Shown here: piece after piece, positions 9,701 to 24,013 of the stretch
Layout of the letters: every line of letters begins with the position of its first letter
Position numbering within the stretch: the first letter of the stretch is position 1
Virus record (IMG/VR): IMGVR_UViG_3300020042_002824
Source: a virus
Taxonomy: Duplodnaviria; Heunggongvirae; Uroviricota; Caudoviricetes
Length of the DNA: 26,483 bases
Direction: 5' to 3' (one strand)
Position numbers and translations under genes: made by a program
Notes under the pieces: model-generated
Told to the model about the DNA's origin: nothing
Databases searched by the model: none
Seen by the model: the letters and a program-made list of their open reading frames with translations, nothing else

Positions 9701-11861
9701 CCCTGACCTACTTGAGCTATACAATTTCATCACTAAGTATAATGAGAAGGCAAAGGATATTGGTTACATCAACAATATGGTGGCTAAGAACTTCCTACCA
9801 TTCATTAGAAAAAGTATGGCTGAGCAACTTGTGTGGGATAATAAGTTGTCTATCATGAACAACTTCTATAACAGTCTTCAAGCTAGAACAGATGACACTG
9901 GTTATGGTAGCATTAACGAAATTACAGGGGAACTACAAAATGGTATTCCTAAATACTATACATATGACTTCACACAAACTGATATAGGAGTTAATGACTA
10001 CTCTGAGGTGAGTGAAGACTTATTTAAAAATCTTATTCTATACATCCAACAGGTAGAGAAATATAAGTATCTGTCTGAGGTGGAAGGTCAGTTAAACTTA
10101 GTAAGAACTATTGAATCATTCAAGGGACATCTTAACACCACTAGATACAGTGATGTAGTTAGAAAGGATGGTAAGGTGCAAGAACTCCCTGGTAATGAGG
10201 AGAATACAAAGATATATGATGAGTTCTTAAGAGCTTTATTGTATGATCAGAAATATACTATTGATGATGCAGACTTACCATTGAACATGGGTAAGGTGAC
10301 AAACTTTATTAAGAATGGTATCAATAAGGTGGCTGGTAAAGAAATCTTTACACCTGAAGAAAATCCTACACCTACATCATTAATTAAAACAATGGATGCT
10401 GCTAACAGAGCATTCCAATTAAAAACACTTGGATTTGAATTCATCTCTGGTGCTGCCAACATGTTTGGTGGTAACATTCAGATTGCCACCCAAGCAGGAA
10501 ACTACTTTAAGGCTAGAGAATTTGCTAAGAATGAAGCTAAGCTTATAGGGCAAAGTTTTAACAATGAGCAAGATAGAGAAACATTTATTGAACTTGTTAA
10601 TACATTCATGCCATTGAAAGATGACCCTTCTTATGAAGAGTTCAAAAGAGCTGGTATGACTACACTAACTAGAGGTAGTCTTTCTGACACACTCATGGTC
10701 TTTATGAGAAAGCCAGAACAACTTTTAGAGAAAGCTACATTCCTCACCCTTCTTGAAAACATGATGGTAGAGAATGGTAAGATAGTTAGTATCAGAGAGT
10801 TTGTAAACAGTAAGTACAAAGACAGATATGATAGTGCTGCTAAATTTAAAGAAAGCAAAACTAAGATAGATGCAGAGATTGAGGAGTTAAAGAAAACAAG
10901 ATCTATTGCTAATACCAAGAAGATGGAAGATGGCAAGTTAGTCATCCCTGGCTTGGATCTAAGCAATAGAGAAGAGATACAAAGACTCACTACACTGACT
11001 AGACGTATATCTAGAAACGCAGTGGGTAACTTATCAGATGGTGATATTAACAGAATGTCTATGTCCATTTGGACTAAGTCTATGATGTTATTCAAAAACT
11101 GGATTCCAAAGTTAACAGATACACGTTTCTCTGAATTCAGAAGAGTGAGTGATGACTTCTCTGTAGAAATTGGAGAAGATGGAATACCTGTTGGTGAGAA
11201 GTATGACATTGGACGTATTCGTCTACTAGCTGCTGTAATTGGTTCTTCATTTAAAGATAAGCAAACTAACCTACTCAACATCATGAATATGAATGATGAT
11301 GGTATCAAGAAGCTTAATGAGATGTATGAAGAGTACAGAGAAGAGTATGAAAGAACTACAGGTCAGGAGTTATACATGACCAAGGAGCAGTTCATTGATA
11401 TGGTGAGAAACAACTTACAGAATCAGATTAAGGAATTAGCCATCTTAGGTTCATTGATAGGAATGATGTTCTCTCTAGGATTCATAGCACCTGATGATGA
11501 TAAAGACAAGGCAGCTAAGAACTTCCACAGATACACAACAAAGGTGATAGATAAGTTTGTAGGTGAGCTTTCGTTCTTCTACAACCCAGTAAACTATCAA
11601 TCCCTATTAGATCAAGGTATATTCCCAGCAACTGGTATCATTAAAGACTTTGGTAGATTCATGGATCATGTATGGATGGAAACAACAGGACTTGACATGA
11701 AGTCAGAAACAACAGCAGAGGATGTAAGGAAGAAAGCACAGCCTGTAAAGAACGCTATGAAGATGTTTCCTTTCACAAAATCTCTTGTAACATACCTAGC
11801 AATTTTAGATGCTGACTTTGCTAAAGAATATGACGTTACTATACAGAAAGAAAATAGATAA
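6753..11861 (+). CDS. Giant virion cargo/DNA-ejection-type protein with a degenerate zincin motif and a PD-(D/E)xK (RecB/Cas4-like) nuclease domain
   Basis: 1702 aa, coupled to the RNAP gene by TAATG. EELVH at 7305-7319. Nuclease signature G-x2-G-H...SEVVIY...AGTIDFL...ILDWK...QIGTY at about 7999-8357. Largely helical remainder; hydrophobic LAILGSLIGMMFSLGFI near the C-terminus. The ejection role is inferred from size and adjacency to the vRNAP. Confidence 0.7.
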   Translation: MSKCILDIKFDITDTARDLAMDNGGFTYIHGERDSLRITDNTLAELSAKKVNDAFGEMLLTPSYGDRTTYFISPSNELAQKYLDYYNSELAVEENKPTTEGEDNNYTNDEPTNFLQVTGFPSTVATPAIIEKVKEAATKMGISIEDLATYAKNTGLDTTNINGVADLARGVIAIAEGQEDVALTEELVHIATAMIEQTNPQLVTQMISRIDKFAIYNQTYKLYKDNKDYQLPNGKPDIRKIKKEAVDKLIAEVIVNEGTGNEYFPELANEDNISLVQKWWSMIKDFIHGLYSKASIDIFREAASEILGGKIEGIPIINGQGPYYQIISPQQKAIQDNINNTRDSLRKVEYAEKNADPLLLDSEEANNGYEIKNDDGTWTKITKRVTDRVKAWYKERFGNKVFSEQEKKFNELKRTLGVAGHRDLEEIHSRYYNEDGTKREYPEPRPTKYNLESRAMYETLENYYTELIETFPKDTLVFSEVVIYDKKNKEAGTIDFLAVEPEGKTHILDWKFMHIAGNDVAWFKQGAFNIQIGTYKNILRENYGIKDFGMLRAIPISLEFGRVDKMDARKGFKLDGIAIGSVDKSKIDPLTEMKLIPLSEESETTGSEALDGVLGKLNALMREYAKEKVTDEGERIFKIERMNTLRRAIRLVQGTGNLQPLVDVIQVMRRDGDRILNDYNTIFKDRPARDTDSTNQELSDFADDMNNYIRFSEVFSSIGDDIGYLIYTVDMEEGATTEAEKENIDLRKEILQDLDSESKAIRISIKEITKASEAFADKHIGQRNLVAGLTKAEAVIKGLAARFRGVSELPSRALQVLYKLTSTAKNNAASDAFKEVEVLMSLRDKLVARGGDTRKLVQKLYQKTTEGGLVNKLIYKYKKDFFEQIDAKAKEGGDKEWLLNNIDVEAYKKEAAPLLESQIARINKNSYSGSAEEQNEQREKYILEAQRLWDIDREDFNGFNNYVVKRHPKSEWLSDEYLDIQKDPDLLELYNFITKYNEKAKDIGYINNMVAKNFLPFIRKSMAEQLVWDNKLSIMNNFYNSLQARTDDTGYGSINEITGELQNGIPKYYTYDFTQTDIGVNDYSEVSEDLFKNLILYIQQVEKYKYLSEVEGQLNLVRTIESFKGHLNTTRYSDVVRKDGKVQELPGNEENTKIYDEFLRALLYDQKYTIDDADLPLNMGKVTNFIKNGINKVAGKEIFTPEENPTPTSLIKTMDAANRAFQLKTLGFEFISGAANMFGGNIQIATQAGNYFKAREFAKNEAKLIGQSFNNEQDRETFIELVNTFMPLKDDPSYEEFKRAGMTTLTRGSLSDTLMVFMRKPEQLLEKATFLTLLENMMVENGKIVSIREFVNSKYKDRYDSAAKFKESKTKIDAEIEELKKTRSIANTKKMEDGKLVIPGLDLSNREEIQRLTTLTRRISRNAVGNLSDGDINRMSMSIWTKSMMLFKNWIPKLTDTRFSEFRRVSDDFSVEIGEDGIPVGEKYDIGRIRLLAAVIGSSFKDKQTNLLNIMNMNDDGIKKLNEMYEEYREEYERTTGQELYMTKEQFIDMVRNNLQNQIKELAILGSLIGMMFSLGFIAPDDDKDKAAKNFHRYTTKVIDKFVGELSFFYNPVNYQSLLDQGIFPATGIIKDFGRFMDHVWMETTGLDMKSETTAEDVRKKAQPVKNAMKMFPFTKSLVTYLAILDADFAKEYDVTIQKENR

Positions 11862-16261: not shown

Positions 16262-16475
16262 AAGTATTATAAAAGACATGCTTACAGATGAGCGTGGATC
16301 TACTAGCCATAAGAGAGCAATTGTTACACTGAGTGCTGTATGCTTACTCAGTGCATTCATGTTTAACTTCAATGTTAACACACACATGGCAGACCTAGTA
16401 GCTGGTATCATATTCGTAGGAATGGGATTCACTACATGGGATAAATTTTCAACTAAAAAGAAAGACAATGAATAA
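16251..16475 (+). CDS. Putative holin (2 TM, basic C-terminus)
   Basis: 74 aa with two hydrophobic segments and a KKKDNE tail; lies upstream of the endolysin. Confidence 0.55.
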   Translation: MSLRSIIKDMLTDERGSTSHKRAIVTLSAVCLLSAFMFNFNVNTHMADLVAGIIFVGMGFTTWDKFSTKKKDNE

Positions 16476-17085
16476 GAACATATTATCATTAGCTGTGATT
16501 GTGCTTATTGCAATCATAGTGTTACAAAGAACTGGTTGTGGACCTGATAAAGCTGCTAAGGGACCTGACACAGTGGTGGTACATGACACTACATATGAAG
16601 TGCGTGATAGTCTCATCGTAAAGAGAATGACTGTTTACAAAACACTTCCTCCTGTACATGATACACTTCCTCCTCAGTATATAGCTGATACAAATTATGC
16701 TGCTTTGAAGCTGCAATATGAGAAACTATTAGGAATGTTCCTAGCTAGAAATGTTTACGTGGACAGCTTAAAGCTAGACTCTGTAGGATATGTAGTGGTG
16801 AGTGATACAGTGCATTCTAACAAACTAGATAATCGTGGATATCAATATCATTATAAGATACCTACAATTCATACAACAACTACTATCACTAAGTATGCCC
16901 CTCTGAAGAATCAATTGTATGCAGGTGGTGGTATAGGTGGTAATAAGACACTGGGTGTAACAAACCTAAATGCTGGTGTGCTTCTTAAGACTAAGAGTGA
17001 TCAGATTTACAGTGTTACAGTTGGTACAAACACTGATGGTCAAATAAGTTATGGCTTTCAGACATTTTGGAAACTTAAAAAATAA
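16468..17085 (+). CDS. Membrane-anchored periplasmic protein, possibly spanin-like
   Basis: N-terminal hydrophobic helix followed by a Cys, seven D-(S/T)-(V/T/L) motifs and a beta-rich C-terminus; located in the lysis cassette. Confidence 0.45.
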   Translation: MNKNILSLAVIVLIAIIVLQRTGCGPDKAAKGPDTVVVHDTTYEVRDSLIVKRMTVYKTLPPVHDTLPPQYIADTNYAALKLQYEKLLGMFLARNVYVDSLKLDSVGYVVVSDTVHSNKLDNRGYQYHYKIPTIHTTTTITKYAPLKNQLYAGGGIGGNKTLGVTNLNAGVLLKTKSDQIYSVTVGTNTDGQISYGFQTFWKLKK

Positions 17086-17088
17086 AAC

Positions 17089-17250
17089 ATGAAGAAGATT
17101 TTAGACTTACTTAAAAAGTTATTTGGTAAGAAAGAACTAGCTGGTACAGCTGTAGAAGTTAAGCAAGAGGAACCAATCCTAGTTGTTGAACCAAAGCCTG
17201 TAGCTGCTAAGAAAAAACCTAAAAAGAAGAAGAAGAATGACGTTAAATAA
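17089..17250 (+). CDS. Small Lys-rich protein (53 aa; absent from the ORF track)
   Basis: MKKILDLLKKLFGKKELAGTAVEVKQEEPILVVEPKPVAAKKKPKKKKKNDVK fills the gap between genes and overlaps the endolysin start. Confidence 0.7.
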   Translation: MKKILDLLKKLFGKKELAGTAVEVKQEEPILVVEPKPVAAKKKPKKKKKNDVK

Positions 17251-17854
17251 TTTGAAGGGGCATGTCCCTGATAGCATATTAGATAAGATACCTGAGGTGA
17301 TGGAGAAGTTTCAGATAAACACCCCAGTGCGCCTTGCTCATTTCCTAGCACAAACAGGACATGAGAGTGGTGGATTTAGAGCATTCCAAGAAAACCTTAA
17401 CTATGGTGCTAAAGGATTAACAAACACATTTAAAAAGTATTTTAAGCGTGCTGATGGAACAATTGATGAACCTAAAGCACTAGCCTATGCTAAGAAGCCT
17501 GAGAAGATTGCAAATCTTGTATATGGTGGACGTATGGGTAATGGTCCTGAAGCATCAGGAGATGGTTATAAGTTTCGTGGAAGAGGAGCAATACAACTGA
17601 CTGGTAAAGATAACTACACAGCATTCTTTAAATCAATAGGACTAGGACCTGATGCAGATCCTAATCTAGTTGGTACACAGTATGCGCTGTTATCTGCAGC
17701 TTGGTTCTGGAGCAAGAATGGATTAAATAAAATAGCAGATGAAGGAGCTACAGATGCTGTAGTGACTAAGATTACCAAGCGTGTAAATGGTGGTACTATT
17801 GGTCTTGCAGATCGCATCAAACACTTCAAAGAATATCATTCATCATTAGTTTAA
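17237..17854 (+). CDS. Glycoside hydrolase family 19 endolysin
   Basis: LAHFLAQTGHESGGF..FQENLNY; FRGRGAIQLTGKDNY; SAAWFW; ITKRVNGG.IGLADR. Confidence 0.93.
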   Translation: MTLNNLKGHVPDSILDKIPEVMEKFQINTPVRLAHFLAQTGHESGGFRAFQENLNYGAKGLTNTFKKYFKRADGTIDEPKALAYAKKPEKIANLVYGGRMGNGPEASGDGYKFRGRGAIQLTGKDNYTAFFKSIGLGPDADPNLVGTQYALLSAAWFWSKNGLNKIADEGATDAVVTKITKRVNGGTIGLADRIKHFKEYHSSLV

Positions 17855-17872: not shown

Positions 17873-17995
17873 ATGGCAAAGGTAAAAGCAGACAGCAGGA
17901 AGATTAGCTTTGGCAAACGCAAGGGTGGCAAGGCTAAAAAAACTTCTGGTCCTAAAGACAAAGCTGTCAAGAAGTATAGAGGACAAGGAAAATAA
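17873..17995 (+). CDS. Small basic protein ending KKYRGQGK (40 aa; absent from the ORF track)
   Basis: MAKVKADSRKISFGKRKGGKAKKTSGPKDKAVKKYRGQGK with an A-rich leader; fills the gap exactly. Confidence 0.75.
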   Translation: MAKVKADSRKISFGKRKGGKAKKTSGPKDKAVKKYRGQGK

Positions 17996-18003
17996 AAAAT
18001 ATT

Positions 18004-18648
18004 ATGGGGGCAAAACTATCGCAAATTGGAACATACATAGGGCAAAAACTATTTTTGTTTTTTCTCTATGGTGCTCTGATATTCATCTTATGTGGCCTAG
18101 GTGCACAGGTCTTTTTCTTATACCTGGAGTTTACAAACCAGCATGAGAAGATTCAAAACATTGTCAATCAACTTACATGGAAGTTTGATGGCAGATTTAA
18201 AAATAGTCCAGGTAACATTTATTACGAGCAGTCTAACAAGATTAGCATTGGAGCTGTCACTAACAAAGTGAAGATAGGTGCTCTTGCTGGTAATAGAAAC
18301 CTGGAGTTTGGTGTTAAGAATATAATAGAAGAAGTGTTGCAAGACATGGACTATGCTATTGATCCATCAGCTAGTTTACAAATCACAGCAGACATTGTAT
18401 ATCTGGATGTTCTAAAGAACAGTTCCCAGGTGTCTGTATTTCATAAAGAAAAAGAATCAGTAGTCATTAGACTATCTGGAACATTACTTAAAGATGGTAA
18501 AGTTATTAAAAAAGCTTTTGCAGAGGAGTCTGCAGCTGAAACAAGTATGTCCACTCTACTAATAGATGAGGGTGGCAAGTTTAACCAACAGAATTTGTCT
18601 AGTGCTTTGAAGAAAGCTTCTAACTCATTGGTAAACAAACTGTTATGA
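18004..18648 (+). CDS. Membrane-anchored CsgG/TolB-N-like protein, paralogue of 21962-22681
   Basis: N-terminal TM segment. Shares GVKNIIEEVL / GVANISMEYL and KFNQQNLSSALKKAS / KFNQSTISIATKKAL with the CsgG-like ORF. Confidence 0.5.
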   Translation: MGAKLSQIGTYIGQKLFLFFLYGALIFILCGLGAQVFFLYLEFTNQHEKIQNIVNQLTWKFDGRFKNSPGNIYYEQSNKISIGAVTNKVKIGALAGNRNLEFGVKNIIEEVLQDMDYAIDPSASLQITADIVYLDVLKNSSQVSVFHKEKESVVIRLSGTLLKDGKVIKKAFAEESAAETSMSTLLIDEGGKFNQQNLSSALKKASNSLVNKLL

Positions 18649-20345
18649 TGAAAAAGTTATTATTTTTTGTCACACTTTTTACAATATTTGTGAAACATTC
18701 TTATGGACAAAACCCTGAGTTAAAGCTCAGTCCTAATGTTATTACAACTAACATTAGTGGTGGGTCTATTAAGAAAGGAGACACTGTACAAGTGTCTTTA
18801 ATATATAAAGCAGCTGCAGGTAAACCTGTACGTTCTTTCTATTTGGATTTCCAACATCAGATTACAGCTATCAATATGTTAGACTTAACATTTGGTAATG
18901 CTGTTCCTCAGGGTGGACAAACATCTTATCAGAACACATACTATCCTGGCTACTTCCTAAACAGAACTCCACAAAACTCTACAGAATCTAGTCAACAAAA
19001 CTCTAACAATCTAAGTTATGGATATAGTCAGACTAGTGGTAGAGCCATCAATCGCATATGGGCTGTATCAAGTGTAGACTTAGTAGATGGTCTGTTCTGC
19101 AACATTAGATTTAAAGTGGAGCAGGTGGCTGCAGGGTTTGCATATGACTCTATCTATTACAACTTTGCACAAGCATACAGTGGTAACTATGGAGGAACCT
19201 ATTATGATACAAAGATGCCTAAACCTAACTCAGCTTGGGTAGGACTTACACCAGTGGCTAATGCACTTGTTAATGGTGAAATAAAACTAAATAATAATTT
19301 AACAACTGGCTATCAACCTCAAGTGTTGTTTATTGACTCAGCTACAAACATTGTAAAAGCTACTGTCACTCCAGCTGCTAATGGTACATTCACTCTTGGT
19401 AGTGAGCTAACACCTAATACAGCTTATAAGATCTTATTGAATGTTAAATCAGATAGCATCCCAGCCATATTGAATAGAGCAATTACAGTGAGTGATTACA
19501 CAGCTGCAGCTACAGAGTTTGTAAAGCAAAATCTAAATGGTACATTCAGTAATAGTAACATTGCTTCTGGTATTGGATTCTTAGCAGCTGATGTTAATGA
19601 TAACAGAGTGTTTGATGGTGGTGATGTAACAGCATTGTTTGCACAAGCTGTAGGAGCTGACACAATCTTTGCTGCACAGCAAGGACAAACATTATGGAAC
19701 GTTCCTGCTTTCTTAAGCAACACATATGACACGCTATCTGCTACCTCTTGGAGAAATGTAACAGACAAATATACAATCAACTTCAGGACTAGTGATGTAG
19801 CTAGACCATTAAGTATTAGCTATCTAATCCCTGGAGACATCAATAGATCACACAGTTCACTTAGAACACAAGCTCCAACAGTAACTACATTTGCTACAGG
19901 GTTTGTTAATACACCTAATGAAAACTTACCTGCTGTAGATGTTAGCTTAAACAACTTAACACTGACTAGTAATGAATTCACTATTCCAGTGAGTGTAAAT
20001 ACAAATAAGGCTGAGCTATCAGCATTACAGTTTGAGTTTGTATATGATCCAACTAAAGTGAAATTTGAATCTATCAAAGCAGACATGCCTACGTGGATTG
20101 TATTTGTAAACAATCACAATGGACGTATTAAGTTTGGTGCTGTAGATAGAGAAATGAAAACTCCATACACAGGAAAAGATCTTGTTCCTTTCAAGCTTGT
20201 CTTCTCTACATTACAAAGTGGCTTGGATATCAACTCAGCTATTAAGGTGACAGCTAACATGGATGCATCAAACATGGCTGGTAAACAACTAGGTGTAAAC
20301 CTAAACACAACAACTATTAAATTAACAGGCTATAATAATTTCTAA
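18645..20345 (+). CDS. Exported protein with cohesin-like and dockerin/EF-hand-like domains
   Basis: Signal peptide MMKKLLFFVTLFTIFVKHSYG|Q. Ca-binding-like DVNDNRVFDGGDV and GDINRS. C-terminal LSALQFEFVYDPTKVKFESI is a cohesin-type pattern. Confidence 0.65.
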   Translation: MMKKLLFFVTLFTIFVKHSYGQNPELKLSPNVITTNISGGSIKKGDTVQVSLIYKAAAGKPVRSFYLDFQHQITAINMLDLTFGNAVPQGGQTSYQNTYYPGYFLNRTPQNSTESSQQNSNNLSYGYSQTSGRAINRIWAVSSVDLVDGLFCNIRFKVEQVAAGFAYDSIYYNFAQAYSGNYGGTYYDTKMPKPNSAWVGLTPVANALVNGEIKLNNNLTTGYQPQVLFIDSATNIVKATVTPAANGTFTLGSELTPNTAYKILLNVKSDSIPAILNRAITVSDYTAAATEFVKQNLNGTFSNSNIASGIGFLAADVNDNRVFDGGDVTALFAQAVGADTIFAAQQGQTLWNVPAFLSNTYDTLSATSWRNVTDKYTINFRTSDVARPLSISYLIPGDINRSHSSLRTQAPTVTTFATGFVNTPNENLPAVDVSLNNLTLTSNEFTIPVSVNTNKAELSALQFEFVYDPTKVKFESIKADMPTWIVFVNNHNGRIKFGAVDREMKTPYTGKDLVPFKLVFSTLQSGLDINSAIKVTANMDASNMAGKQLGVNLNTTTIKLTGYNNF

Positions 20346-20722
20346 TGAAAGAACTAAGAATATTACTAGGGCTATACATATTAATCATTGTTACAGTGAT
20401 TGCTTGTACAAAGATTGATGTTCCTGCTCCTCAGGTGATTGACCTAGGTAAGCAGTCTACATCCACATCTATTGTTAATCTATCTACAGTGTTAATTAAA
20501 GATAAGGTGGACGTAACAATGAACCTTACACCAGGAGCTAAATACTCCTTGATGTTAATTGATTTAAACAATGATGTTAAAAAGTCTACAGGCTTCACAG
20601 CTGATAACACATTGGTTATCAAAACATTAGACTACTCAGATGTTAAAACTGGAGATTACACTCTTGAATTAATTGACATCTCTGGTAAAGAATATAAAAG
20701 ATTAATAACTATAAAACATTAA
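20345..20722 (+). CDS. Lipoprotein resembling a stand-alone T9SS C-terminal sorting (CTD) domain
   Basis: Lipobox-like VIA|C after a hydrophobic leader; YSLMLIDL...LDYSDVKTGDYTLELID...KRLITIK follows the type-A CTD pattern. Confidence 0.5.
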   Translation: MKELRILLGLYILIIVTVIACTKIDVPAPQVIDLGKQSTSTSIVNLSTVLIKDKVDVTMNLTPGAKYSLMLIDLNNDVKKSTGFTADNTLVIKTLDYSDVKTGDYTLELIDISGKEYKRLITIKH

Positions 20723-20726
20723 TAAC

Positions 20727-21029
20727 ATGTCAGAAGAACAAGCAGGTGGTGGCACCTCTATAAAAAACATTCTAATTGGATTAGTAAGTACAGTTACACT
20801 AGGTGTAGGTGGTTGGTTTACAACCAAACTAACTGGTGGTGATGAGAAAGAAGCTGCTCCTGCAGCTGCTGCTCCAGTAATTAATATCACCAATTCTAAC
20901 CAACAAGCTCAACAAGCTGGTGGTGGTAAGACAATTGTCATCAAAGAAAAGGAAGTTGCAGCTAAACCTGCACCTGCTACTAAGAAAAAAGATGGTGATG
21001 AGTTTAAAGAAGAAGCTCCAAAGTGGTAA
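20727..21029 (+). CDS. Single-TM protein with Ala/Pro/Gln- and Lys-rich linkers
   Basis: ILIGLVSTVTLGVGGWF followed by low-complexity sequence. Confidence 0.75.
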   Translation: MSEEQAGGGTSIKNILIGLVSTVTLGVGGWFTTKLTGGDEKEAAPAAAAPVINITNSNQQAQQAGGGKTIVIKEKEVAAKPAPATKKKDGDEFKEEAPKW

Positions 21030-21030
21030 T

Positions 21031-21168
21031 ATGGCAAACGCACAAAAGAAACCAAAGGCTCAGAGATCTAGAAGATCTGGTATAAAGAAAGCTGAGCTAA
21101 TCAAATCAAATCAACAAGTAATATCAAACGTATGGACTTATTTAAATCAAAACCAACTGAAGAAGTGA
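21031..21168 (+). CDS. Small basic protein (45 aa)
   Basis: MANAQKKPKAQRSRRSGIKKAEL... starts 1 nt after the upstream stop. The track's 20920 start is probably wrong. Overlaps the next gene by 37 nt. Confidence 0.5.
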   Translation: MANAQKKPKAQRSRRSGIKKAELIKSNQQVISNVWTYLNQNQLKK

Positions 21169-21722
21169 AAAAAGAAGCTACAGGTTTTCGTGAACTCTTA
21201 GCAAACATGATGGCAAGAAGGTGGTACATCACTGCCTTGGTGCTTGGGTCATTCATGCTTATCATTGGTGGTATATTTGTAGCTGTTAACTATAACGCTA
21301 CAATGCCTGCTGAATGGAAGGAGTTGTTGTTCTTAATGCTAGGTGCCTTCATTGGTTCTTATGGAAAGATTATAGACTACTGGTTCAGTGATACAGACAA
21401 AGACAAGATGCTCGTACAAAAGATGGACGAGGAGGATGGCACAACGCTGTCTCACACCAATGACATGAAAGAGAGTAACAAACCAGTTGCTCCTACAGTT
21501 CCTGATGCATTTGTCAAAGCTGCAGAGCGTGCTTCAGAAATGGCTATCGTAGAGAACAAACAAGAATATGAGTTAAAGAAAGACCAGCAAGAGCATGAGC
21601 AAGAGATGGAGAAGCTTGAGTTTTTACATCATGAGCACAAACAATGTGAGCATGTATTTGCTGATGTAGATCATGATGGAGACTATGAATGTATCCACTG
21701 TGGTAAGATAAAAGATTTCTAA
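21132..21722 (+). CDS. Two-TM membrane protein with a C-terminal His/Cys metal-binding tail
   Basis: TM helices (WYITALVLGSFMLIIGGIFVAV; ELLFLMLGAFIGSY); tail HHEHKQCEHVFADVDHDGDYECIHCG. Confidence 0.7.
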   Translation: MDLFKSKPTEEVKKEATGFRELLANMMARRWYITALVLGSFMLIIGGIFVAVNYNATMPAEWKELLFLMLGAFIGSYGKIIDYWFSDTDKDKMLVQKMDEEDGTTLSHTNDMKESNKPVAPTVPDAFVKAAERASEMAIVENKQEYELKKDQQEHEQEMEKLEFLHHEHKQCEHVFADVDHDGDYECIHCGKIKDF

Positions 21723-21746
21723 CTTAATTTAATAACATGGACACTC

Positions 21747-21965
21747 ATGACCAAAAGAAAAACAATCAAGAGACTGACATATCTGAAAGACATGAGCCTA
21801 ATGCTAGCCATGTTCTTTCTTCCATTTGGGTACGACTTTTTGTTCAAGACTATAATGAACGCTACAGGTTCTTTCTGGGTAGCAGACATTATTTTCTATT
21901 GTATCTCAGGGTCATTTTTTCTGTCTTATATTTTATTATTGAAGCATTTAAATAAGCATAAATGA
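21747..21965 (+). CDS. Small two-TM membrane protein
   Basis: LMLAMFFLPFGYD...FWVADIIFYCISGSFFLSYILLL; ATGA-coupled to the next gene. Confidence 0.7.
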   Translation: MTKRKTIKRLTYLKDMSLMLAMFFLPFGYDFLFKTIMNATGSFWVADIIFYCISGSFFLSYILLLKHLNKHK

Positions 21966-22681
21966 AGAAGTTACTACTTGTCCTTGTAACATTTTTATAT
22001 ATAAATTTGTTACAAGCTCAACTAGCCAAAACCTCTACAGAGCAATACAAGGCTAGCTTTGAGAAGGCTATAGATATTTCGAGCTTTCTAGATTATGATG
22101 GACCTCAAATCCCTATTCAGATCTTGAAGTGTGGCATCAATGATGAGATGTATGAGCTATATCCTGAGCTAAAAGAAAAGCGTGTGGGCCTAGGGGTGGC
22201 TAACATATCTATGGAATACTTGGAGAACCTAAACAGATTCAAATTTACAGAAGACAAAACAGAGATTAAGAACAGAATGGTGAAGCAGTTTCAGGCTTCC
22301 CAAGCTGGCATATCTGAGAATAAGTTAGATGGACGTGGTAAGATTAATCTAGCTAAATACTTTGTAACTATTGAATGTTATGATTATAGTATATCAGAAG
22401 ATGAAACTATTAGCCTTAAGGATGGTACAAAACAACTTATGGTTACGAGGATTGGTTTACAAGTTAGATTCACAGATGCTGAAACTGGTGTGGTGTTCTC
22501 AGGCTCTGGGCTTGGTGATGCAAAGACAACTAAAGAGACTGCTGGGATAACTTCAGACGCTGCTTTAGATCCTGTTAAGTTTAATCAATCCACTATATCT
22601 ATAGCAACTAAGAAGGCCCTGGACATAGCTTGTGCTAGGATCTTGGACAGGATGGTGAAGAAAGGAATCTTCACTAAGTAA
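21962..22681 (+). CDS. CsgG/HfaB-family-like exported protein
   Basis: Signal peptide. LGVANISMEYLENLNRF...A.YFVT...YDYS...IGLQVRFTDAETG.V...G.G and a terminal helix IATKKALD follow the CsgG-family layout. Confidence 0.7.
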   Translation: MKKLLLVLVTFLYINLLQAQLAKTSTEQYKASFEKAIDISSFLDYDGPQIPIQILKCGINDEMYELYPELKEKRVGLGVANISMEYLENLNRFKFTEDKTEIKNRMVKQFQASQAGISENKLDGRGKINLAKYFVTIECYDYSISEDETISLKDGTKQLMVTRIGLQVRFTDAETGVVFSGSGLGDAKTTKETAGITSDAALDPVKFNQSTISIATKKALDIACARILDRMVKKGIFTK

Positions 22682-23907
22682 TGAAGCAGTTTATTTTTAT
22701 TCTATTAGTGGTAGTCTTACTACCAATATTTGGGTATTCTCAAACTATCATACAGACGTTTACAGATCCTTGTACAAAGGTGACAACTACATTCACTATA
22801 CCTATTACAGGTAGTACAACGTTGGTATTTTACAACAAATCTAAAACATTCACATCAGCTGATGTACAATCTGGTGCTCTCCAAGCATGGTTGAATCAGG
22901 TGTATGAAGAATATAGAAAACTCAGTCCTTGCTCTGTAGCACAAGCAACACAAACTTCCACACAGATAACAGCTGCTGCTGTGAGCTCAGCTGTTGGGAG
23001 TGCTGTTAGTTCAGCTGCCAGTTCTGCTGTAGGGGCTGCTACATCTTCAGCTGCCAGTAGTGCAGCAAGTGGTGCTAGTTCTGCCGCAGCAAGTTCAGCT
23101 AGTTCTTCTAGTAGTTCTTCTAGCAACAGTTCAGAATCAAGTAGCAGTTCTGAAAGCTCATCTAGCTCAGAAAGTAGTTCTGAATCCAAATCTGAAAGCA
23201 AGGGGGGAGGGGGTAAGGGAGGTGGTAAATCTGGTGGAAAGAGCCAAGCTAAGATGAACCCCATACTCTTCAACTCTGATCTTACAGGAGGACAAACATT
23301 AGATGGTTCTGTCAACCTTGTGGTTACATCAGGTATATCTCAAAGCTCTATGGCAGGAGATGCTAGCTGGGGAGTTACAGGAATGGTCTGGAGCAACCTT
23401 AAACAGTTTGCTATAAGTGGACGCTATACCAAGATGAACTTTGATGGTGGTAAACTACAGAACATATCTAACTATGGTGGCACTGTAGCTTATGCTTTTG
23501 GTAATGTGTTTGGGTTTGTAACATATGCCAAAATCTTTCCTCTAGGAAAGTGGGGAGTTACAGGTGTCAACGCTACAATAAGTGTAGCTTCTGCAGACTA
23601 CAAAGATGATGAGAAACAATACACAACTACACACTCTTTATTATTCTTCTATACAAAACCATTCACCATCAATAGAAAAATAACACTATCTCCTGATATA
23701 TACATCTCTGGTAGCCCTGTTACATATGGCACCAAAGATGGTCAGTTCATAGTGAGTGATGACATGATGTTCCTAACAGGATGCAGCATGGACTACTCAA
23801 TTACAAAGAGATTCAAGTTTAACACAGGACTAAGAACTAGCCTTAGCACCAATCCAGAGATGCCCATCTTGGTCTTTGCTGTGATAGGAAGCAAGTTAAA
23901 TTTATAA
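22681..23907 (+). CDS. Exported protein: small N-terminal domain, Ser/Ala-rich linker, probable outer-membrane beta-barrel
   Basis: Signal peptide; S/A/E/G low-complexity tract at about 22966-23244; amphipathic beta-strands ending FAVIGSKLNL. Confidence 0.6.
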   Translation: MKQFIFILLVVVLLPIFGYSQTIIQTFTDPCTKVTTTFTIPITGSTTLVFYNKSKTFTSADVQSGALQAWLNQVYEEYRKLSPCSVAQATQTSTQITAAAVSSAVGSAVSSAASSAVGAATSSAASSAASGASSAAASSASSSSSSSSNSSESSSSSESSSSSESSSESKSESKGGGGKGGGKSGGKSQAKMNPILFNSDLTGGQTLDGSVNLVVTSGISQSSMAGDASWGVTGMVWSNLKQFAISGRYTKMNFDGGKLQNISNYGGTVAYAFGNVFGFVTYAKIFPLGKWGVTGVNATISVASADYKDDEKQYTTTHSLLFFYTKPFTINRKITLSPDIYISGSPVTYGTKDGQFIVSDDMMFLTGCSMDYSITKRFKFNTGLRTSLSTNPEMPILVFAVIGSKLNL

Positions 23908-23963
23908 CTAAAAAAGTTAAAACACTTATAACTAATTTAGTTATTGTAAATTATTGATCCTCA

Positions 23964-23993
23964 TTGTTAATAGTAAAAAGTAACATATCTTTG
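23964..23993 (+). promoter_or_regulatory. Bacteroidota housekeeping-sigma promoter for the fibre/decoration genes
   Basis: TTG at 23964-23966, 19-nt spacer, TATCTTTG at 23986-23993; the ATG follows at 24014. CTCA precedes the TTG, as at 11900. Confidence 0.8.
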
Positions 23994-24013
23994 AAAATTA
24001 ATTTTATTTAATC

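Follow-up and report, generated by a model that had tools for sequence, protein, structure and literature searches.

A late accessory gene cassette in phages of Bacteroidota encodes CsgG-like and stalked beta-barrel proteins with bacterial counterparts and may remodel the host envelope

The IMG/VR virus record IMGVR_UViG_3300020042_002824 (Caudoviricetes) comprises 26,483 nucleotides, all of which are referred to here as the window. The block under study occupies positions 18004-23907 on the + strand and contains nine co-oriented open reading frames (ORFs), M1-M9. Three of the products (M8, M9 and M1) have orthologues encoded side by side in bacterial genomes, and the entire block is missing from a phage that otherwise shares its backbone. 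The block is regarded here as an accessory cassette, used late, whose products could remodel the envelope or surface of the infected Bacteroidota cell; this interpretation is preferred, with a confidence no better than even. The nine ORFs are as follows.

M1, 18004..18648, + strand: shortened CsgG/LpoB-like paralogue, anchored in the inner membrane by an uncleaved transmembrane (TM) helix (residues 16-34), core at about 76-214.
M2, 18645..20345, + strand: exported protein of 566 aa with an N-terminal beta-rich region, a Ca-loop motif at about 315-337 and a cohesin domain at 444-539.
M3, 20345..20722, + strand: small lipoprotein whose lipobox reads VIAC (Cys21); its beta-sandwich domain is about 100 aa long.
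M4, 20727..21029, + strand: 100 aa; a single Gly-rich TM helix (about 14-32) precedes a tail rich in Pro, Ala, Lys and Gln whose last residue is Trp.
M5 (corrected), 21031..21168, + strand: basic ORF of 45 aa without an export signal, filling the gap between M4 and M6.
M6, 21132..21722, + strand: inner-membrane protein with a TM helix at 33-51, a second hydrophobic stretch and an acidic coiled C-terminal half.
M7, 21747..21965, + strand: holin-sized membrane protein of 72 aa with two hydrophobic stretches.
M8, 21962..22681, + strand: protein of the CsgG/HfaB superfamily with a type-I signal peptide cleaved before Gln and without a lipid anchor.
M9, 22681..23907, + strand: signal peptide, N-terminal domain (N-domain), stalk and a predicted outer-membrane beta-barrel of about 12 strands.

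A signal peptide, a lipobox or a TM helix is found in eight of the nine products. Thus the first-pass annotation, which had described nine contiguous and almost exclusively exported or membrane-bound products, holds once M5 is replaced by the 45-aa ORF; its view that a phage carries these genes and sends their products to the host envelope was borne out as well. Neighbouring genes overlap by 4 nt (M1/M2 and M7/M8) or 1 nt (M2/M3 and M8/M9), and 4 nt separate M3 from M4. The signal peptides of M2, M8 and M9 are cleavable, each being followed directly by Gln, which is usual in exported proteins of Bacteroidota. The only Pfam match above threshold in the nine ORFs is the cohesin of M2. PHROGs gave weak matches only, to families without a function, and NCBIfam gave nothing useful.

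Assignment of M8 to the CsgG superfamily is based on family profiles and on structure. Neither M8 nor M1 itself matches Pfam at E ≤ 1. The CsgG family (PF03783) is matched by 15 of 34 members of the M8 family (best E 3.7e-23), and the M8 family profile finds CsgG in the PDB (6lqh, E 0.0025). The AlphaFold2 (AF2) model of M8 (pLDDT 82) has the alpha/beta core common to LpoB, PelC, LptE and the N-terminal domain of TolB. Foldseek against the PDB places CsgG on top (4uv2/6l7a, E 2e-7, probability 1.0, TM-score about 0.5), followed by FlgT, GNA1162, PelC and LptE. In the Swiss-Prot part of the AlphaFold database (AFDB) the list is headed by NMB1126/1164, a Neisseria lipoprotein of the CsgG family (E 7e-13), with CsgG (6e-8) and HfaB (1e-5) also among the best.

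Bacterial counterparts were sought in species-representative genomes with a sub-alignment of distant M8 relatives, and 18 loci were found in metagenome-assembled genomes of many phyla. At a typical locus the lipoprotein F0a, the M8 orthologue, lies beside F1 (about 410 aa) and F0b, a second paralogue of about 215 aa; this arrangement of adjacent CsgG-like lipoprotein, stalked barrel and second paralogue is matched by M8, M9 and M1. The cluster occurs in Cloacimonadota, KSB1, Bacteroidota, Ignavibacteriota, Fibrobacterota, Spirochaetota, Acidobacteriota and Myxococcota, among others. M8 is 26-36% identical to F0a proteins (E down to 5e-43). F1 shares the layout of M9, with a signal peptide, an N-domain carrying an RTFT motif, a charged linker and a barrel with RF as its last residues, and the M9 profile matches the F1 profile with 96.3% probability (E 1.6e-9). 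None of the three bacterial families has a curated name: NCBIfam returned only sub-threshold LpoB and TDE1717-barrel matches, and the F1 profile had no match in the PDB. Their neighbours include exported caspases (Peptidase_C14), transglutaminase-like, PA14 and GLUG proteins, proteins with the C-terminal domain (CTD) of the type IX secretion system (T9SS), and sensor kinases. Some of the neighbouring caspases possess a CsgG-like N-terminal domain. An equivalent of M4 was not found upstream of the bacterial F0a genes.

The relationship of M1 to M8 becomes clear only through the bacterial proteins. Direct links are weak, both in BLASTP of M1 against M8 (E 4e-4) and in comparison of the two family profiles (14.6% probability over 31 columns). 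The M1 profile matches the bacterial F0b family with 96.4% probability (E 1.2e-9), and F0b in turn matches the M8 family with 99.9% probability (E 2.5e-33). Since F0b links both, M1 is taken as a paralogue of M8. Of the two CsgG-like proteins named in the first-pass annotation, M8 is therefore confirmed by profile and fold, and M1 through this bridge family only. The M1 profile has no match among PDB sequences.

In a maximum-likelihood tree rooted on F0b, all phage-type M8 proteins form one clade (Shimodaira-Hasegawa-like approximate likelihood-ratio support, SH-aLRT, 98-99). It is nested beside sequences of Bacteroidota, Ignavibacteriota, KSB1 and Cloacimonadota, on the branch of the Fibrobacterota-Chlorobiota-Bacteroidota (FCB) group. 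A single nested clade indicates that the gene was captured once, long ago, probably from an FCB-group bacterium, and then spread among phages. The lipobox Cys has been lost in this clade: M8 reads LLQAQ/LAKT where the bacterial orthologues keep GCASVSTE.

Protein clusters at 90% identity include about 6250 that match M8 (E ≤ 0.01), and M8 is found in 513 IMG/VR stretches. Gene content was counted in the best 80 of these 513, picked by M8: M9 is present in 80, M4 in 75, M2 in 70, M1 in 69, M6 in 67, M3 in 51 and M7 in 36 loci. When the cultured phage immuto is added, M8 and M9 occur together in 80 of 81 loci. The order o15926-o16468-GH19-M1-M2-M3-M4-M6-M7-M8-M9 is nearly constant across the 80 loci, whereas the outer flanks (the glycan-modification operon and fibre genes) vary; hence the set is conserved as a unit, as the first-pass annotation had required for its reading to hold. 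Near-identical DNA was recovered from freshwater and lake metagenomes of more than 10 studies.

Phages of Bacteroidota carry the cassette in two or more unrelated lineages. Immuto, a cultured Flavobacterium myovirus, contains the core M4-M8-M9-M1 together with cohesin and lectin proteins. The bacterial order M8-M9-M1 is kept, and the M4 homologue imm16 (E 3e-7) lies directly in front of the M8 homologue. Beside the module are a C-type lectin protein and the cohesin protein imm15, whose T9SS sorting domain (Por_Secre_tail, E 2.4e-8) points to surface display via the host T9SS.

M2 and M3 are the variable exported members. The cohesin of M2 (PF00963, E 9.9e-8, 32.7 bits against a cut-off of 24.1) is present in 7 of 8 M2 homologues, and Lectin_C was detected in one. 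The C-terminus (IKLTGYNNF) is conserved. The dockerin that had been annotated along with the cohesin did not stand: the alignment contains one canonical EF-hand-like Ca loop, DVNDNRVFDGGD, after a degenerate first repeat, and Pfam Dockerin_1 matches neither M2 nor its 7 homologues. Cellulosomes combine cohesins and dockerins too, and relatives of M2 mix cohesin, dockerin-like and lectin modules; in contrast to cellulosomes, no enzymes accompany M2, the host is Gram-negative, the dockerin-type loop is unrecognised by Pfam, and anchoring in immuto would proceed via a T9SS CTD and not via S-layer homology (SLH) domains or sortase. M3 is translationally coupled to M2. Its lipobox Cys is retained in 6 of 7 aligned sequences, so the lipoprotein part of an earlier description as a CTD-like lipoprotein is correct. 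The CTD-like pattern itself is a lead only: Por_Secre_tail (PF18962) was not matched by M2 or M3, M3 has no Pfam match at all, and in one viral cluster of the Atlas related to M3 the domain occurs in 15% of members.

Rates of change differ strongly along the block. M2 is the fastest-evolving and most variable member (24-55% identity to relatives except in the closest phages) and M8 the slowest, as would be expected if an exposed payload were mounted on a scaffold under constraint. Even among loci selected for a similar endolysin, M8 is 78-99% identical, the endolysin (glycoside hydrolase family 19, GH19) 71-94% and M2 39-87%. One relative (L002/L175) is 97% identical to the window in M8, 72% in the endolysin, 72% in M1 and 55% in M2. 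This pattern points to M8 being either very strongly constrained or passed from phage to phage.

Dispensability of the block follows from L118, an IMG/VR record of 104.9 kb (91% complete) fetched by its endolysin. Its flanking genes are 85-97% identical to those of the window, and none of M1-M9 occurs anywhere in the record. L118 lacks the block on the same backbone, so the block is accessory and exchangeable; its absence from a close relative of this completeness implies that replication and the assembly of virions can proceed without it. The place of the block is taken by another cassette.

L118 slot cassette, 10628-11614 of the L118 record: three genes between the endolysin and the fibre gene, encoding a 100-aa protein (TM helix and coiled coil), a 113-aa lipoprotein (coiled coil) and a 143-aa protein (signal peptide, coiled coil and C-terminal TM helix).

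Judged by these features, the L118 cassette is a candidate spanin set of a Bacteroidota phage. Its genes were not found in the other viral loci compared (about 160), and the 143-aa gene, the only one searched genome-wide, is absent from three module-bearing genomes, two of which have terminal repeats. Two small basic ORFs follow the three genes.

Gene content, export signals, folds, conservation, descent from bacteria and dispensability are established by the analysis; beyond these, the following sequence of events is proposed for the infected cell. The cassette would be transcribed with the lysis genes and its products installed in the host envelope, where M8, M9 and M1, along with the phage-specific M4, would constitute a phage copy of the uncharacterised bacterial outer-membrane complex. 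M9 could insert its barrel of about 12 strands into the outer membrane and bear a small, putatively disulfide-bonded domain on a long flexible stalk; the topology of this domain is inferred. After export through Sec and cleavage by signal peptidase I, M8 would stay in the periplasm under the outer membrane, where it probably forms a ring or scaffold like CsgG, PelC and FlgT and may touch M9. M1 and M4, the latter through its extended Pro/Ala-rich tail, could serve as inner-membrane tethers reaching the M8/M9 assembly. The variable payload would consist of M2 and the coupled lipoprotein M3, and in relatives of C-type lectins or the T9SS-sorted cohesin protein; M2 might thereby be exposed at the surface. 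Such late re-dressing of the cell could benefit the phage by keeping progeny or competing phages from adsorbing to the dying cell or to debris from it, or by altering adhesion. The wider proposals of a trans-envelope apparatus or an entry/exit conduit, made from the sequence earlier, found no support in the analysis.

Remodelling is rated the most likely function because the payloads are of cohesin, lectin and T9SS-CTD type, the bacterial contexts are unrelated to lysis, and the immuto module lies away from its lysin. Several points weigh against it. Contact between the proteins, their oligomeric state and their localisation are predictions, and no function can be transferred from the uncharacterised bacterial counterpart. 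M2 has neither a T9SS CTD nor a lipobox and may stay in the periplasm. Expression rests solely on short contigs from RNA libraries, possibly contaminated with DNA. Superinfection exclusion normally acts early, and late transcription alongside lysis genes would be unusual for it. Finally, the spanin-like cassette in the same slot of L118 fits a role in lysis as well or better.

An accessory function in lysis is the most serious alternative, on balance unlikely. The whole cassette, or a part of it made up of M3 and M9 with M1, M4 and M6, could link both membranes and bring about or control disruption of the outer membrane in place of a spanin. No promoter-like box separates the block from the GH19 endolysin and holin-like genes directly in front of it, and near-isogenic L118, which has no M8, fills the slot with three spanin-like genes, one of which (143 aa, the only one searched genome-wide) is wanting in the three module-bearing genomes. 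A classical spanin pair was not recognised in the window by PHROGs. Set against the build of a two-component spanin, M3 is a lipoprotein and M4 and M1 are tethered to the inner membrane; a coiled coil is not evident in them and PHROGs gave no spanin match. A lysis-regulating role was proposed for phage CsgG/CsgF (PMC9004378).

Against this alternative, the bacterial orthologues of M8, M9 and M1 lie in chromosomal clusters without lysis genes. The immuto module is situated amid replication and nucleotide-metabolism genes, about 17 genes from a glucosaminidase-type lysin, and the cohesin, lectin and dockerin-type payloads have no obvious part in membrane fusion. L118 is also a single case of replacement, and slots beside lysis genes are classic sites of morons, lambda bor being an example. 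Lambda Rz/Rz1, Bor and Lom and T5 Llp are encoded by membrane-protein genes beside lysis genes and act in lysis, exclusion or surface change; no homology to them was found, and the present cassette exceeds them by far in size and stems from an envelope complex of bacteria.

A broader proposal concerns bacteria and phages together. The triad of M8, M9 and M1 types may be an unrecognised machine for display or secretion at the outer membrane, widespread among FCB-group and other diderm bacteria. The exported partners that it serves would vary, being caspases, lectins and adhesins in bacteria and cohesin and lectin proteins in phages. Phages of Bacteroidota would have captured it once and would use it to cover the lysing cell and its membrane debris with binding proteins. 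Taken jointly, these statements are doubtful.

That M8, perhaps with M1, assembles into an oligomeric outer-membrane pore of genuine CsgG type (type VIII-like) and exports M2 or an unrecognised fibre subunit is improbable. CsgG (4uv2/4uv3/6l7a) and the PF03783 family do share with M8 the alpha/beta core and a long beta-hairpin, the latter of which sets CsgG, the best fold match, apart from LpoB, PelC and LptE. The single long hairpin of the M8 model (133-172), however, bears a family-wide conserved acidic cluster, E(D/E)E, has no continuous hydrophobic face and is about 6 residues shorter than the aligned segment of E. coli CsgG; a second hairpin has pLDDT below 65 and no confident model. The two amphipathic transmembrane beta-hairpins per subunit that characterise the curli channel are thus not seen in the M8 model. 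M8 has no lipobox Cys, M1 is anchored in the inner membrane, and a dedicated separate barrel, M9, is always encoded adjacent; pairing with this barrel and with a second, shortened paralogue, as well as a position below all Pfam thresholds, distinguishes M8 from CsgG. Neither curlin (CsgA, CsgB) nor CsgE or CsgF was detected in any block ORF by Pfam or NCBIfam, in line with the earlier remark that no curlin is encoded. The lack of a lipid anchor, the conserved acidic hairpin and the absence of CsgE and CsgF make a curli-type channel unlikely; according to the model, M8 would be a periplasmic CsgG-fold protein, contrary to the role of curli outer-membrane channel first attributed to it.

Phage clusters with CsgG are known. 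Pelagimyophages of the HTVC008M group (PMC7029224) and OM43 phage Melnitz (PMC9004378) carry canonical csgG-csgF, without curlin genes; roles in lysis, uptake or aggregation were suggested for csgG-csgF (PMC7029224, PMC9004378). They resemble the cassette in encoding CsgG-family proteins without curlin genes. They differ in that their CsgG and CsgF are near proteobacterial curli genes, whereas the proteins described here belong to another subfamily, lack CsgF, occur in phages of Bacteroidota and are joined by a stalked barrel and cohesin/lectin proteins. Literature searches yielded only these pelagiphage and Melnitz CsgG/CsgF genes, and a published description or annotation of the present module was not found. 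What is new here is the recognition of an orthologous triad in bacteria, of a single capture in the tree, of an absent lipid anchor together with an acidic hairpin in M8, of the revised small ORFs and of a natural replacement by a spanin-like cassette.

Domains fused to CsgG-like sequences were encountered among M8 relatives. Proteins of 495-535 aa (among P0218, P0219, P0229, P0259 and P0253) combine a CsgG-like N-terminus with a caspase C-terminus, and one fused form of 642 aa has an N-terminal Ser/Thr-kinase-like region, a TM helix and a C-terminal CsgG-like domain.

M9 begins with a conserved N-domain of about 60 aa containing two conserved Cys (DPCTK...SPCS), which is followed in the alignment by a conserved Ala/Ser-rich helix. 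The stalk (about 114-191) is Ser-rich, then Gly/Lys-rich, disordered, of low complexity and variable in length. The barrel occupies residues 195-408 of the AF2 model, in which about 13 strand segments were counted. AF2 and Foldseek thus agree with the beta-barrel and Ser-rich linker first read from the sequence. The closest PDB structures by Foldseek are FapF (1.5e-7), NanC and the beta-domains of EspP and BrkA, and in AFDB autotransporter barrels; judged from the model, this is generic similarity to 12-stranded barrels. No Pfam family, including Autotransporter, is matched. FapF and the type Va autotransporters have a layout like that of M9 (N-terminal domain, flexible linker, C-terminal barrel of about 12 strands). 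Unlike them, M9 has no Pfam or profile match, fap genes are missing, and the model contains no in-pore helix directly before the barrel.

A pore or uptake device in which the M9 barrel and an M8 periplasmic funnel, arranged like PelB/PelC, pass solutes or polymers is highly improbable. The barrel does resemble the 12-stranded channels NanC/KdgM and FapF, a likeness weakened by its generic nature, and PelC, of the same fold as M8, is a precedent for a ring under a barrel. In both PelB-PelC and LptD-LptE a protein of this fold (the PelC ring, the LptE plug) works with an outer-membrane barrel. Sequence relationship to PelB or LptD is nevertheless absent, M9 has a small barrel of about 12 strands, neither a polysaccharide synthase nor other polysaccharide or lipopolysaccharide genes are linked, and the stalked N-domain and cohesin payload would be left unexplained. 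Contact of M8 with M9 is putative; a complex prediction for M9 (21-408) and M8 (21-239) gave a score of 0.03, which was counted neither for nor against it.

Recent acquisition of a bacterial island, or a misassembled bacterial fragment without a phage role, is effectively refuted: orthologues of three genes do exist in one bacterial cluster, and in this part the refuting condition set by the first-pass annotation applies, yet phage and bacterial proteins share no more than 26-36% identity, the former being one old and well-supported clade matched by about 513 IMG/VR stretches and 6250 protein clusters, and the block resides within complete phage genomes with terminal repeats and has the GC content of its flanks (0.33-0.40 along the whole window).

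The preferred interpretation, remodelling of the envelope by an accessory cassette, concerns a very common gene set, with about 6250 M8 clusters, more than 500 IMG/VR loci and at least ten freshwater or lake metagenome studies. It would mean that phages carry a multi-protein envelope complex of bacterial origin, beyond single outer-membrane morons. The cultured pair of immuto and Flavobacterium sp. LMO8 makes the function directly testable, and the natural swap with a spanin-like cassette raises the question of how Bacteroidota phages breach the outer membrane.

Among the small membrane proteins, M4 is part of the conserved phage core. The C-terminus of M6 carries a zinc-ribbon-like motif (C-x2-H...C-x2-C) and is for this reason probably cytoplasmic; the TM region of M6 gives weak matches to PHROG 9990/1544. 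The small basic protein annotated earlier is real, although its frame was not: the 82-aa GTG frame at 20920 was replaced by the 45-aa ORF at 21031-21168. M5-like ORFs of 35-56 aa with an RSRRSGIKK-type motif are found in relatives with a gap of about 100 nt between M4 and M6 and are absent where the gap is 17-28 nt. In module-less L118 an M5-like ORF adjoins a 40-aa basic ORF, which in the window lies upstream of M1. Both lack an export signal and are present in L118, so they are taken as backbone genes; M5 is probably an optional one, outside the envelope function.

The whole window is one co-oriented late region. Upstream of the block are two giant ORFs, a sulfo/methyl-glycan operon, o15926 and o16251 (small, holin-like membrane proteins), o16468 and the GH19 endolysin, in this order. 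The giant and holin-like ORFs have no match in PHROGs. The endolysin is directly 5' of the block, in the same apparent transcription unit. Features flanking the block are given below.

GH19-type endolysin, 17237..17854, + strand: Pfam Glyco_hydro_19 E 1.6e-7, PHROG 181 (endolysin) E 7e-71.
Very basic 40-aa ORF (MAKVKADSRKISFGKRKGGKAKK...), 17874..17996, + strand: between the endolysin and M1, previously unlisted and read from the sequence.
AT-rich spacer, 23908..24013, + strand: marks where the block ends on its 3' side and contains a -7 box of Bacteroidota type, TATCTTTG, at 23986.

A homologue of the 40-aa ORF directly follows GH19 in many relatives (up to 97% identity), in keeping with its assignment to the backbone and not to the envelope set.

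The -7 box at 23986 is likely to mark the start of the fibre-gene unit. Boxes of this type (TAnnTTTG) were not found in + strand intergenic spacers between 12356 and 23986; therefore one long late transcript may run from the glycan-modification operon through the lysis genes to the envelope cassette. The box TAGCTTTG at 17905 lies inside the 40-aa ORF and was not taken as a promoter. A scan for sigma-70-type promoters was uninformative, matches being fewer than in shuffled sequence. At 90-97% identity, RNA-library contigs from three studies span the greater part of the block; they are at most a weak hint of transcription, with DNA carry-over possible. One marine RNA-library contig joins 17962 to 23904 and skips the block, its shorter side matching 36 letters only, which is weak.

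The gene o16468 (16468-17085, + strand) encodes a conserved protein of 205 aa with a hydrophobic N-terminus ending in Cys (RTGC; DRSC in L118) and a Gly-rich, beta-like C-terminal half. It accompanies the endolysin in 49 of the 80 loci and in L118, and may be a candidate lipoprotein of the lysis set.

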